64,000 nt of DNA, taken from the sequence record PZ452578.1; one strand, 5' to 3'. The DNA comes from a phage. The notes below the pieces were generated by a model. It did no database searches. It saw only the letters and a program-made list of their open reading frames with translations, and was not told the origin of the DNA. The translations under genes and the position numbers were made by a program. The first letter of the stretch is position 1, and every line of letters starts with the position of its first letter. Below, in pieces: positions 2,136-38,142 of the stretch.

Positions 2136-3151
2136 TGTGTTGCCTCTACATATAACTGATTTGCATATTGAATAAGTGCTTCGCGATCAGAATCAGTGAT
2201 GTCTGGAATTGCATTAATGTATTCTTCCATCAATGTCTGAAGAGATTGAACTTCAACTTCTTCACTGTCATCTGACTCGACAGAGTTATCAATCTTTGAC
2301 ACAACTCGTAATGAATGCACAACTTTTTCTAGTTCAGATTCGAACTTCGTTAGATTTTTGTCTACTTCAGTTACTATAACACGTACTGATAGATTTGTAA
2401 AATCTTTATAGTCAATTTTTCCTTTAAATGGATAATGAATTCTACGATGCCAGGTAGTATTGTTTGGAATAAATTCCATTCGTTCTGTTTCTGTATCAAA
2501 CATCCAGAACCCGCGAGGGTCATTCTCGTCACCTGCTGTTAGTGTCCATGGTGTCCCAATATATCTGACGTTTGCAGCCTCAGAAATAGTATGGAAGTGA
2601 CCAGACCACACTTCTTTATAAGTCTTAAGGAAATCAGGTTCAAGACCGTGAGATTTCATTCCTTTATAAAAATAAAATCCATTCAGTTCCCAGTGACCAA
2701 CACAAAAAGAAGCAGATGAAGTTTTGATGTGTTCAAGAATTTCACCAGTATTTTCTTCACACATCCAAGGAATTAAATCAATCAAACATCCGTCAAAATC
2801 TACTGTAGTAGGCTTATCATATACTTTAACATTAGGATATTTAGCCAAAAGCTCAGTAGAAGCATTTGGATGCATTACATTTTTATAGTGGAGATCGTGA
2901 TTTCCTACAATAGTATGTAATGTGATTCCAGCGTCGTCAAGCATTTGAACTATTTCACGGGCAAACTCCATAGTTTTATGCGTGATCGCTTTTCGTACAT
3001 CAAAAATATCACCATATTGAATCCATACAGTAATTCCATTTTTCTTAGAATATTCTATCGCTTGCTTAATTCCATCAATTTGAATACCGCGAATCCACTC
3101 ATCATCGGCTTTAACGCCTAAATGCCAATCACCCAAGTTTAGTATTTTCAT
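2132..3151 (-). CDS. 47: Recombination endonuclease subunit gp47 (Mre11/SbcD-like phosphoesterase)
   Basis: 339-aa ORF; calcineurin-like motifs GDWHLG, GDIFD, GNHD; adjacent to gp46 as in T4. Confidence 0.9.
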   Translation of the reverse strand: MKILNLGDWHLGVKADDEWIRGIQIDGIKQAIEYSKKNGITVWIQYGDIFDVRKAITHKTMEFAREIVQMLDDAGITLHTIVGNHDLHYKNVMHPNASTELLAKYPNVKVYDKPTTVDFDGCLIDLIPWMCEENTGEILEHIKTSSASFCVGHWELNGFYFYKGMKSHGLEPDFLKTYKEVWSGHFHTISEAANVRYIGTPWTLTAGDENDPRGFWMFDTETERMEFIPNNTTWHRRIHYPFKGKIDYKDFTNLSVRVIVTEVDKNLTKFESELEKVVHSLRVVSKIDNSVESDDSEEVEVQSLQTLMEEYINAIPDITDSDREALIQYANQLYVEATQ

Positions 3152-3752
3152 GGTGTCTTTTCCATCCTAATTTAGCTGCTTTTGAAACTAGTTCTTTAAT
3201 TTTTCCTTTTGTCCATTCAGGACCAGGAGGTTCATGACATAACATTTGCTTAACTCCGTTATTATACCATTTTTTACCTTTATTATGTGATGAAGCTTTA
3301 AATTTATTTGACCTTCCTTTTACATAACCTTCTGGAATATACGGTAAAAAGGCAGATTTTCCTGTTAATGGGTCATGTGAATGTATGTTTCCTTTACAAT
3401 TATGAGAACCATATAATGGATGATTTTGTCCTTTAATATCTCTTCCAAATGAACCTTTTGGAGCAGCATATGACATATTAAAGAATAATGGATTTTTAAC
3501 CGCATCATGCAAACGTTGATAATATAGCTCGCATTTAATAGCTTCTTCGCGCGTATCAAATTCATCTAAAATGCATGAATCAAATAAATGTGGGTTATCT
3601 GAAAGTTCTTCATTATAAATTTTCTTATACTTTTTAGATAAAACTGATCCATGATATCCGGCTAAATGCCTATCTAAAGATGTAGATCCAATATAAAAAG
3701 GAGGAAGTTTATCTCCACTATATATTGTTAAATAAGTTATATATTTTTTCAT
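3129..3752 (-). CDS. GIY-YIG family endonuclease-like protein (Seg-like, putative freestanding homing endonuclease)
   Basis: 207 aa; N-terminus YLTIYSGDKLPPFYIGSTSLDRH fits GIY-(10)-YIG-R pattern; N-terminus paralogous to ORF 19495-20214. Confidence 0.5.
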   Translation of the reverse strand: MKKYITYLTIYSGDKLPPFYIGSTSLDRHLAGYHGSVLSKKYKKIYNEELSDNPHLFDSCILDEFDTREEAIKCELYYQRLHDAVKNPLFFNMSYAAPKGSFGRDIKGQNHPLYGSHNCKGNIHSHDPLTGKSAFLPYIPEGYVKGRSNKFKASSHNKGKKWYNNGVKQMLCHEPPGPEWTKGKIKELVSKAAKLGWKRHHENTKLG

Positions 3753-8372: not shown

Positions 8373-8402
8373 ATCAATTCCTCAAAGGCAATTCATGTGT
8401 TA

Positions 8403-8432
8403 ATAATACCACAGTTTGAGCTCGTTGTAAAC
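8403..8432 (-). promoter_or_regulatory. T4-type early (sigma70) promoter
   Basis: minus strand reads GTTTAC-18nt-TATTAT with TGTGG upstream of -10 and A-rich UP region. Confidence 0.55.
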
Positions 8433-8513
8433 AACTTTGTGAAAATTATTTTAAGGAATGATAAGAAGTGAACGATAGCTTAGAATGGTAATATACAGAA
8501 TGTGAGAAAGAAA

Positions 8514-13555: not shown

Positions 13556-13813
13556 TTATTCCTTAATTCCTAGTACTTGTTTAAAAGTCTCGTCGTAATC
13601 AAGACTTTGGCCCGTTTGTTCTTTATATTTGTATATAATATCACTTACTTCTGATAGCATATTTTTATATGAACGAGTTAAAGCTGATTTAAGCACGCTG
13701 TATCTATCAGGAAATTTACCATGTTCATTATAATACGCTATTGCTAATTCACGGACTGCCTTTTCAGCAGTCTCCATATATTCTTTACGCTTGGTCATTT
13801 TCTTCTCGGTCAA
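13556..13813 (-). CDS. Hypothetical protein (85 aa)
   Basis: ORF track. Confidence 0.45.
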
Positions 13814-14099
13814 ATCGGTGTTTACAATGGCGACATTTATAACGAAGATTATTAGTCTGCCAATGGACTAATTGCACCTGTTCAGTTCCACACTCAGGGC
13901 AATTAGGAACGTTTTTAGAAGCCCTTTCGCGACGTTCAACCATGACCATTACAGAATCCCAATTAATAGGGCTGCTATAATCATCACAACCATAAATCTT
14001 TCCACGCATTTCCAGATCGTCTTCTTCACCAGCCATAATAATTTTAATTAGACTAGAATTACTTGAAGCTGCAATATCTTCTAATAAACGCTTTTTCAT
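13785..14099 (-). CDS. Zinc-ribbon protein (104 aa)
   Basis: CPECG...CRHCKH four-Cys ribbon. Confidence 0.45.
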
Positions 14100-25557: not shown

Positions 25558-25770
25558 TCATTTTTGTCCTGTATTTACTTTATGCCGATGCACGGCCTTA
25601 ACTTTATCAAGGTATTTTTCAAAATTTCGCAATCTAGTATAGTCTGCCGGAGATTGGTTGAGTGATACTTCTCGACGCAAAGCTGAAATGATATTTCCAA
25701 CTTCCCTACGAATTTCATCTAATTAAAGCACAGTAAGATTGCGAAGTTGCTTTTCAGTTAATTGTAGCAT
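25558..25770 (-). pseudogene. Small late ORF interrupted by in-frame TAA (15 codons, TAA, 54 codons)
   Basis: ATG 25768-25770 with SD and TATAAATA upstream; MLQLTEKQLRNLTVL, stop at 25723-25725, then [54 protein letters not shown] in the same frame. Confidence 0.4.
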
Positions 25771-31846: not shown

Positions 31847-32164
31847 TTATTCTTTAGGGAAGTTTTTAGAATATGCATCATAAAGCTTATTTCCAATACG
31901 GCGGAAAACTCTAGCCGCAAAACGATTTTCTGGGTTTTTAATCATGATTTGCATCATATAAGTACCCGCGTCAGAAAGAGCTTCTTCATAGTACCCGTTA
32001 ATTTCTTTAAGAGTCCTACGTTTACCACCAGGACCATCAACAGTGATTTTCCATTTACCTGTAGAAGTACGACTTGGCGGCTCAACTTGTTCAATCCAGA
32101 TATAACCGCCTTCTACACGTTGTCCTGCAGCAGATTCTGCAATAAATTCTTGATATGTTTTCAT
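31847..32164 (-). CDS. Internal protein (IPII/IPIII family)
   Basis: 105 aa; MKTYQEFIAES leader; early promoter upstream. Confidence 0.7.
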   Translation of the reverse strand: MKTYQEFIAESAAGQRVEGGYIWIEQVEPPSRTSTGKWKITVDGPGGKRRTLKEINGYYEEALSDAGTYMMQIMIKNPENRFAARVFRRIGNKLYDAYSKNFPKE

Positions 32165-36450: not shown

Positions 36451-36924
36451 TTATTTGATTTGTTTAGCAGACCAAATGCGGTCTTTAATAATTTTTTGGA
36501 TGTCTTCAACATACTCAAGAGAGTGAGCATGTGGGTTATCTTTGAAACTATAAGCACGAGCTAGCTTTTGGCCTTCAGTTTTGATTACTAAAAGCTCTTT
36601 AAGGATAGCTTCATATTTAGAGATAATTCCTTTAACAATATTTTTTTCTTGTGCAGCTTTAGGATCTGCTTTAGGAGCAGGTTTACCTGAAGCCTTTGCA
36701 AAAGCAGCTCCAGTAGCAACTAAACTTTTCCAGGCCATACTAACCGCATTTCCTGTAAATCCTTCTGCTTTCATGTCGCGAGCAAATTGGAATCGTGATT
36801 CATCGGAAGCATCTTTATAGGAATATTTACCCGCGGCAATGGCTGCTTTTGCGACAGCTTGAATTTCGGTGCTAGATGCTTCATTTAACACCGCTTCATT
36901 TAAAAATTGAGCATATGATTTCAT
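36451..36924 (-). CDS. Internal-protein-like protein with capsid-targeting-sequence-like N-terminus
   Basis: 157 aa; MKSYAQFLNEA leader resembling MKTYQEFIAEA of IPs with L-x-E cleavage motif; own late promoter and SD AGGAA. Confidence 0.6.
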   Translation of the reverse strand: MKSYAQFLNEAVLNEASSTEIQAVAKAAIAAGKYSYKDASDESRFQFARDMKAEGFTGNAVSMAWKSLVATGAAFAKASGKPAPKADPKAAQEKNIVKGIISKYEAILKELLVIKTEGQKLARAYSFKDNPHAHSLEYVEDIQKIIKDRIWSAKQIK

Positions 36925-37314: not shown

Positions 37315-37390
37315 TGGTCGAGGCAGTAGGAATCGAACCTACGACCTAGGACTTAGAAGGTCCTTGCTCTTCCTTCTGAGCTATGCCTCG
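37315..37390 (-). tRNA. tRNA-Arg (anticodon UCU)
   Basis: Manual fold: acceptor CGAGGCA/TGCCTCG, D-stem GCTC/GAGC, anticodon loop CTTCTAA, T-loop TTCGATT, CCA encoded. Confidence 0.8.
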
Positions 37391-37394
37391 GATT

Positions 37395-37469
37395 TGGCGG
37401 ACGTGATAGGATTCGAACCTATAACCAATCGCTTAACAGGCGATCGCTCTGCCATTGAGCTACACATCC
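37395..37469 (-). tRNA. tRNA-Asn (anticodon GUU)
   Basis: Manual fold: acceptor GGATGTG/CACGTCC, D-stem GCTC/GAGC, anticodon loop CTGTTAA, T-loop TTCGAAT, CCA encoded. Confidence 0.75.
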
Positions 37470-37473
37470 AAAT

Positions 37474-37560
37474 TGGTGGGGAGTGATGGAGTCGAACCAC
37501 CCGAGTCGCAATGACAATGGATTTACAGTCCACACCGCTACCTCTACGGGATAACTCCCC
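37474..37560 (-). tRNA. tRNA-like, Tyr-type (anticodon GUA, long variable arm), non-canonical D region
   Basis: Acceptor GGGGAGT/ACTCCCC, anticodon loop CTGTAAA, T-loop TTCGACT, CCA encoded; 4-nt linker before 3-bp D stem. Confidence 0.45.
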
Positions 37561-37569
37561 TAATTAATT

Positions 37570-37644
37570 TGGTGGCCCTGGGTGGAATTGAACCACCATC
37601 TGGCGATTATGAGTCGCTTGCTTGAACCTTCCAGCTACAGGGCC
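37570..37644 (-). tRNA. tRNA-Ile/Met type (anticodon CAU)
   Basis: Acceptor GGCCCTG/CAGGGCC, anticodon loop CTCATAA, T-loop TTCAATT, CCA encoded. Confidence 0.75.
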
Positions 37645-37645
37645 T

Positions 37646-37721
37646 TGGTGCTGATTGACGGAATCGAACCGCCGACCTTCTCATTACAAGTGAGTTGCTC
37701 TACCTACTGAGCTAAATCAGC
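37646..37721 (-). tRNA. tRNA-Thr (anticodon UGU)
   Basis: Acceptor GCTGATT/AATCAGC, D-stem GCTC/GAGC, anticodon loop CTTGTAA, CCA encoded. Confidence 0.8.
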
Positions 37722-37726
37722 AAAAC

Positions 37727-37816
37727 TGGCGGAGGCGATAGGATTTGAACCTATGAGTCGCCGGAGCGACTGCCGGTTTTCAAGACCGGTGCATTAAACC
37801 ACTCTGCCACGCCTCC
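37727..37816 (-). tRNA. tRNA-Ser (anticodon UGA), long variable arm
   Basis: Acceptor GGAGGCG/CGCCTCC, anticodon loop CTTGAAA, T-loop TTCAAAT, CCA encoded. Confidence 0.8.
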
Positions 37817-37818
37817 AG

Positions 37819-37892
37819 TCTCCATACAAGGATTTGAACCTTGGACCTCCTGATCCCAAATCAGGCGCTCTACCAAACTGAGCTACACGGAG
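37819..37892 (-). tRNA. tRNA-Pro (anticodon UGG)
   Basis: Acceptor CTCCGTG/TATGGAG, anticodon loop TTTGGGA, T-loop TTCAAAT; CCA not encoded. Confidence 0.8.
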
Positions 37893-37902
37893 TAAATTAA
37901 AT

Positions 37903-37976
<74 letters not shown>

Positions 37977-37981
37977 AAATT

Positions 37982-38068
37982 TGGTGCGAGAAGTGGGACT
38001 CGAACCCACAAGGAAATCATTCCGCAGCATTTTAAGTGCTGTGCCTTTACCAATTTGACCATTCTCGC
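37982..38068 (-). tRNA. tRNA-Leu (anticodon UAA), long variable arm
   Basis: Acceptor GCGAGAA/TTCTCGC, anticodon loop CTTAAAA, T-loop TTCGAGT, CCA encoded. Confidence 0.8.
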
Positions 38069-38069
38069 G

Positions 38070-38142
38070 CTGGGAATAAAGGACTCGAACCTTTGCATCC
38101 TGGAATCAAAATCCAGTGCCTTACCAACTTGGCTAATTCCCA
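38070..38142 (-). tRNA. tRNA-Gln (anticodon UUG)
   Basis: Acceptor TGGGAAT/ATTCCCA, anticodon loop TTTTGAT, T-loop TTCGAGT; 1 nt from tRNA-Leu. Confidence 0.8.

Follow-up and report, generated by a model that had tools for sequence, protein, structure and literature searches.

The in-frame TAA that interrupts a small late gene between tk and rI in a T4-like phage is an ordinary knockout allele, or else a base-call error, in a known accessory gene, rI.1, and not a recoding signal. The DNA analysed here is a stretch of 64,000 nt (sequence record PZ452578.1), hereafter called the window, and its source is a T4-like phage of the genus Tequatrovirus. The phage collection holds no record identical to the window; among the best matches, RB14 shows about 96% identity over 24 kb and RB32/RB33 98.1% identity over 6 kb, and for a stretch of 1.56 kb covering tk and the rI operon the closest records show 99.2-99.4% identity. 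The elements of the locus are arranged as follows.

26394-25813 (-), tk, the upstream neighbour of rI.1
25803-25796 (-), box of a T4-type late promoter, TATAAATA, 33 nt 5′ of the rI.1 ATG
25782-25776 (-), Shine-Dalgarno (SD) sequence of rI.1, AAAGGGG, with a predicted duplex of -7.9 kcal/mol with the 3′-end of 16S rRNA
25770-25558 (-), the rI.1 gene, 70 codons plus TGA, assigned by homology and broken at codon 16
25770-25768 (-), start codon ATG of rI.1
25770-25726 (-), 15-residue peptide MLQLTEKQLRNLTVL, the sole part expected to be translated
25725-25723 (-), ochre codon TAA at codon 16, which replaces CAA (Gln16)
25722-25561 (-), the 54 codons 3′ of the TAA, expected to stay untranslated (alignment and structure model)
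25560-25558 (-), terminal TGA of rI.1
25557-25555 (-), TAG directly after the TGA, both of which run into the rI SD sequence
25554-25538 (-), hairpin over the ribosome-binding site of rI, beginning 3 nt after the rI.1 TGA
25545-25252 (-), the antiholin gene rI, 97 aa, intact, 99% identical to RB14 RI
25255-24869 (-), rI.-1, 128 aa, intact, 100% identical to that of RB14; it closes the operon
24864-24847 (-), terminator-like GC-rich hairpin AGTCTCC-TTCG-GGAGACT with a T-run, 5 nt after the rI.-1 stop

The elements on which the original prediction was built, namely the TATAAATA box, the SD sequence, the ATG, the TAA, the open frame of 54 codons and the TGA-TAG, are all present at these positions on the minus strand, and the small late gene between tk and rI with an in-frame TAA that it described is confirmed, homology now giving it the name rI.1. 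By this homology the frame is the known gene rI.1 (T4 ORF 58.9, AA 1-70 / Y05Q; PF26904, phrog_1826). With codon 16 restored to Gln, it matches phrog_1826 over residues 1-70 with E=1.6e-37, and a tblastn search with the 70-codon frame, its stop masked, retrieves intact ORFs of 70 aa from 924 phage records, down to about 40% identity, T4 ORF 58.9 being 98.6% identical in the same kind of search; all 69 sense codons (69/69) encode the same residues as in T4 and RB51. The PF26904 assignment ('Phage_T4_Y05Q') is a precomputed one carried by homologues of rI.1, and RI.1 gave no match against the local Pfam copy, which is a copy without the PF26904 model. The RI.1 family is small: a profile searched exhaustively against 1.84 billion cluster representatives found 22 of them. 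Intact homologues of 69-70 aa are located directly upstream of rI in seven other genera, and the gap between rI.1 and rI on the same strand is 7-12 nt in T4, RB51, these seven genera and the window, where the rI ATG begins 12 nt past the rI.1 stop. The tk gene upstream and the rI.-1 gene downstream are often replaced in other genera, and because these two are not always present beside it, the rI.1-rI pair can be regarded as a conserved unit. Twenty-one columns are invariant in 17 aligned homologues, most of them 3′ of the stop, and the conserved core in this downstream part consists of LDEIRxExG, DY, EKYLxxVKAV (YL, VKAV) and N66.

A late promoter has been placed between tk and rI.1 (Golec et al. 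2010, PMC2962797). The 60 nt upstream of rI.1 are the same in T4, RB51 and the window, and the TATAAATA box is found at -32 to -36 in five of seven other genera; the box occurs 11 times in the whole window against a chance expectation of 10.9. In Pet-CM3-4 and WSPA, a GC-rich hairpin is located just 5′ of the late-promoter box. A scan for sigma-70 promoters gave no signal above chance, and at the other end the hairpin at 24864-24847 probably terminates the rI operon.

How has this gene been broken? A single C>T change at 25725 of the coding strand (G>A on the plus strand) turns CAA (Gln16) into TAA. When the window is aligned with RB51 and two T4 records, this C>T is the only difference from RB51 across rI.1 and its flanks, and the window thus carries the commonest rI.1 allele plus one C>T transition. 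None of 501 phage records is identical to the window over 61 nt centred on the stop (megablast). A 32-mer and a 20-mer containing the TAA are absent from IMG/VR, the corresponding CAA 20-mer is present in five IMG/VR viral contigs, and a degenerate 20-mer detected four phage contigs in metagenomes, each of which has CAA; the three matches of the degenerate 20-mer in GTDB genomes are unrelated chance matches (bacterial or archaeal). Fourteen of the 17 aligned homologues have Gln at codon 16 and three have Ser, and the codon is CAA or TCT at 36 further loci in other genera. The comparison of relatives for a sense codon at the stop position, which the original prediction had proposed, gives CAA (Gln) or, in some distant lineages, TCT (Ser), and its reading of the TAA as a nonsense (ochre) allele or pseudogene is supported by this sense codon in relatives and by the single C>T that separates the window from the common allele. 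Within the collections compared, the lesion is shown to be private to this sequence, and the TAA allele is simply one that is new to the collections searched. It is to be noted that the lesion is isolated also within the window. All 116 annotated RB14 genes spanning the window were translated, and 106 of them have a counterpart there; rI.1 is the only broken gene among these 106, save a doubtful ORF of 28 aa, RB14ncORF072w (nc072w). The counterpart of the latter, at 8397-8480 (+), contains a stop, suggesting that its annotation does not represent a real gene. The 54 codons downstream of the TAA in rI.1 are still protein-like, as they would be if the mutation is too recent for decay.

What does the truncation remove? 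The AlphaFold2 model made on the family alignment (pLDDT 92.7) has helices at residues 6-10, 14-38 and 41-67; the first is short, and the two others form a long helical hairpin. Of this model, the 15-residue peptide spans just the short helix and two residues at the beginning of helix 2. Both long helices are removed by the stop at codon 16, and the allele is therefore expected to be null: translation would end after 15 residues, leaving no functional RI.1. Members of the rI.1 family are uninterrupted ORFs of about 70 codons, while the frame in the window is interrupted by TAA at codon 16; judged from its sequence, the locus is best described as the rI.1 gene with a null allele, which would encode no functional member of the family. 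In T4, RI.1 is a protein of 70 aa with a pI of 10.2, encoded in one operon with rI and rI.-1, and this operon is transcribed from the late promoter between tk and rI.1 as well as from an early promoter 3.3 kb upstream (PMC2962797). Over-production of RI.1 is strongly toxic and causes filamentation (PMC2962797), and the results of co-expression suggest a modulating influence of RI.1 and RI.-1 on lysis inhibition by way of RIII (PMC2962797; reviewed in PMC6832632). The role of RI.1 in lysis inhibition is thus one deduced from over-expression genetics only, and no loss-of-function phenotype of rI.1 was found reported in the accessible literature.

Is the TAA really present in the phage? We incline to the view that it is a genuine and recent null allele of rI.1, which seems rather probable. 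The change is a clean substitution of the C>T type, and among real mutations such transitions are the most frequent. Moreover, rI.1 is considered dispensable, since frameshifts in it, beside intact neighbours, are found in two other public assemblies. There is nevertheless an appreciable, if minor, chance that the true genome has CAA and that the TAA comes from a base-call, assembly or consensus error, or from a mutation during cloning or propagation. The allele is unique in comparison with more than 500 close relatives while the remainder of rI.1 is identical to the common allele, and the rI.1 lesions in other public assemblies resemble homopolymer errors. RI.1 expressed from a plasmid is toxic in E. 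coli so that only inactivated clones survive (PMC2962797), and clone-based sequencing would be biased accordingly. However, the TAA is a substitution of the commonest type and not a homopolymer indel, and a poor assembly is rejected as its source, since the other 105 of the 106 genes shared with RB14 are intact, as expected of a good assembly. No independent sequencing of the same phage was found, the contigs compared being at most 98.3% identical to the window. The other public assemblies with lesions are those of Shigella phage ESH35 (ON528745.1) and the Logan assembly of ERR11570814, in which rI.1 is broken and tk, rI and rI.-1 are intact. Their lesions are indels of -1 and +1 at an A5 run matching 25615-25619, which leave about 51 native residues, and these frameshifts are either homopolymer sequencing errors or products of recurrent slippage. 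There are also three further truncated forms of rI.1.

If the TAA is a real codon of the phage, can it be decoded? Programmed readthrough or suppression of the TAA, by which full-length RI.1 of 70 aa would still be made, was one of the readings in the original prediction, and the downstream frame is indeed kept perfectly. T4-type phages encode tRNA-Gln, and a one-base change in the anticodon of this phage tRNA could produce an ochre suppressor that inserts Gln. The window has the following tRNA genes.

37315-38142 (-), cluster of 10 tRNAs (Arg, Asn, Tyr, 'Met' with CAT, Thr, Ser, Pro, Gly, Leu and Gln), anticodons all normal

The tRNA with the CAT anticodon is annotated as tRNA-Ile in RB14. 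A search for an ochre-suppressor tRNA among these ten phage tRNAs found none with a TTA anticodon, tRNA-Gln having its normal TTG. As a genuine terminator, TAA is used more often than any other stop in the window, ending 58 of 104 genes, and therefore reassignment of the codon is excluded. The TAA of rI.1 is followed by U, and UAA-U is known as the signal at which termination in E. coli is strongest and most efficient. A fold of 231 nt gave z=-2.0, with no specific element adjoining the TAA. If the stop were programmed, it should be conserved in relatives, but it was found in none of the 501 records, nine phage contigs, 17 aligned homologues and 36 further loci; and the maintenance of the downstream frame is explained by the recent mutation. 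A stop that is absent from all relatives examined, that is the main terminator of the phage and that no TTA anticodon in the cluster can read makes decoding very improbable, and programmed readthrough was given up.

Another possibility is that the locus gives two products, the peptide of 15 aa together with a C-terminal fragment that has its own start and retains function. In T4 rIIB, translation is known to restart after nonsense codons, and several start codons lie 3′ of the TAA in rI.1.

25718-25716 (-), out-of-frame ATG 4 nt after the TAA, which opens a junk ORF of 47 codons (25718-25575)
25680 (-), in-frame TTG, a candidate start for 40 aa
25632 (-), in-frame TTG, a candidate start for 24 aa
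25593 (-), in-frame GTG, a candidate start for 11 aa

The SD sequence before the TTG at 25680 is weak (-3.3 kcal/mol against -7.9 kcal/mol at the native start), and the product from this TTG would be without the invariant LDEIRxExG and half of helix 2; indeed, the products of all the in-frame restarts would be devoid of the LDEIRxExG motif. The ATG close to the stop is out of frame and encodes junk. It has no SD sequence (duplex of +0.9 kcal/mol), and its ORF stops some 30 nt short of the rI ATG; judged by position, the out-of-frame ATG possibly acts as a site of termination-reinitiation, which would give a junk peptide in this mutant only. Relatives always have one uninterrupted ORF of 70 codons and never two, so that the two independently translated peptides of the original prediction are hardly credible. 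It is practically out of the question that the frame is merely a chance open stretch in AT-rich DNA and not a gene, a reading rejected by conservation (intact homologues at the same place in many genera, and the 21 invariant columns), by the confidently predicted fold (pLDDT 92.7) and by the published genetics of rI.1, even though open stretches of 54 codons or more arise frequently by chance, about 166 being expected per shuffled window. For the same reason, the argument that an open frame of 54 codons after a stop is unlikely by chance is weak by itself: base composition gives a probability of 0.016 that a given stop is followed by 54 or more open codons, and the 64-kb window contains 300 open stretches of at least 54 codons against those about 166 in shuffles. 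Thus, it is homology and not statistics that makes the rI.1 feature credible.

As a null allele of rI.1, the ochre may have a consequence also for the next gene. The hairpin GAGGCC-uuuAU-GGCCUU (-10.4 kcal/mol) buries the rI SD (GGAGG) and the G of the rI AUG. Its stem is formed between 25554-25549 and 25543-25538, and the rI.1 TGA at 25560-25558 is placed within the ribosome footprint. The hairpin recurs in nearly all of 20 distinct junctions, with stem variants GAGCTC/GAGCTT, GTCC/GGAC and GAGGGCC/GGTCCTT, and codon 2 of rI varies among Ala, Ser, Asp, Gly and Val; it is absent in one genus (Karamvirus Pet-CM3-4). In the alignment of 17 sequences, 95% of the cells are paired, and in three of the six pairs both partners have changed. 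The alignment has a covariation score of 0.331, shuffles one of 0.142; none of 500 shuffles reached the observed score, and registers slid along the alignment score at most 0.157. In relatives, the normal rI.1 stop is 0-5 nt 5′ of the hairpin. This RNA structure and its geometry suggest that translation of rI is coupled to that of rI.1: a ribosome that reaches the normal end of rI.1 would sit over the hairpin and melt it, and release at codon 16, about 170 nt upstream, should leave it closed and lower the synthesis of RI. Because a ribosome released that far upstream would leave the hairpin unmelted, reduced RI synthesis is to be expected, and lower RI synthesis would weaken lysis inhibition, the more so as RI is a very unstable protein (PMC2962797), from which weaker inhibition is expected once RI is reduced. 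By this reasoning from structure and spacing, the ochre likely has a polar effect that lowers rI expression. The rI SD is strong (duplex of -10.2 kcal/mol) and might initiate independently of rI.1 translation. RegB, an RNase of the phage, is specific for GGAG, and the hairpin could instead shield the GGAG of the rI SD from this enzyme. A text search of the literature on translational coupling of rI and on ribosome profiling of T4 found nothing.

The predicted fold of RI.1 leads to another consideration. In a Foldseek comparison of the RI.1 model with the PDB, all of the 50 best matches are the ribosomal protein uL29 (bacterial L29 / eukaryotic L35), with TM of 0.75-0.89 and E-values of at least 0.08, and the model has the uL29 fold. 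The two proteins are similar in size, 63-77 aa in uL29 (PF00831) and 70 aa in RI.1, and both consist of a short helix and then a long helical hairpin. In a search of 177,635 PDB sequences with a broader profile of 32 sequences, the best match was an L29 (8crx_x), with E=0.059 and an alignment from end to end. In hhalign against a profile of 17 L29 sequences, 63 columns are collinear with a probability of 58%, P=1e-4 and a score of 26.6; 200 column-shuffled profiles gave a mean of 9.9 (sd 2.2, maximum 18.4), reversed profiles 14.4 and 15.2, and circular shifts at most 21.8. To this L29 profile, PDB L29s were added by hand, the homologue matches listed being all at least 84% identical to E. coli L29. 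Single RI.1 sequences had no match with PF00831, the narrow profile A3 found no L29 in the PDB, and no signal was obtained when hhalign was run on E. coli L29 as a single sequence (probability of about 0.9%). The evidence is thus convergent but sub-threshold, and homology between RI.1 and uL29 is plausible, not established. No paper linking RI.1 and uL29 was found in a literature search for phage uL29. In the ribosome, uL29 sits at the tunnel exit of the 50S subunit, where trigger factor and SRP dock. A tentative and, taken as a whole, unlikely idea is that RI.1 is a relative or mimic of uL29 and that the hairpin couples its translation to that of RI, the membrane-targeted antiholin; the ochre would then be a double hit, with no RI.1 and less RI, which would shorten lysis inhibition, and the mutant was perhaps picked up via larger and clearer plaques.

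The comparison with RB14 revealed several other differences within the window. An ORF of 207 aa at 3129-3752 (-), between genes 47 and 47.1, is absent in RB14; it matches the homing-endonuclease families phrog_10820 (E 7.6e-94) and phrog_314, and is probably a mobile endonuclease insertion. An extra ORF of 105 aa (phrog_3966) at 31847-32164 (-), between Ip4 and e, is also absent in RB14, and it begins with MKTYQEFIAESA, much as the adjacent Ip4 begins with MKTYQEFITEAA; this resemblance of the N-termini suggests an additional gene of the internal-protein type. At the place of the unrelated RB14 nc136c, the window has an ORF of 157 aa (phrog_2280) at 36451-36924 (-), which is a local gene replacement beside the tRNA cluster. 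The nrdC.2 counterpart at 13806-14099 (-) aligns to residues 1-99 of the RB14 protein of 129 aa with 78% identity, its C-terminus being either divergent or truncated.

As to the stop in rI.1, the appropriate annotation of the locus is a disrupted rI.1, not a recoding event. Provided that the stop is real, this phage offers an rI.1 knockout, ready-made in its natural background, with which lysis inhibition can be tested directly for a gene whose role has so far been studied by over-expression only. The hairpin that may gate rI, together with the uL29-like fold, could matter more than the stop, for the mechanism of lysis inhibition in T-even phages, which has long been unsolved.

Among known systems, the nearest is rI.1 of T4 itself, which has the same position, late-promoter box, SD sequence, length and stop, and whose junction with rI, including the hairpin, is identical to that of the window. 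T4 has CAA at codon 16 where the window has TAA, and there are two synonymous differences (GTT>GTG and CAC>CAT) from the T4 gene. With respect to the junction, hairpins of coat-replicase in MS2 and of e and soc in T4 sequester ribosome-binding sites, and here the upstream stop likewise lies within the ribosome footprint; compared with MS2 and T4 e, coupling between rI.1 and rI is one that we infer from RNA structure only. The allele in the window resembles the classical amber and ochre mutants of T4, such as the rII ochres, in that CAA is converted to TAA by the same route, a GC>AT transition, and the expected outcome is also the same, truncation of the protein with possible polarity on the next gene. 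Unlike those classical nonsense mutants, it would affect an accessory gene that is non-essential, in a field-type isolate, and was neither selected as a conditional lethal nor accompanied by a suppressor.
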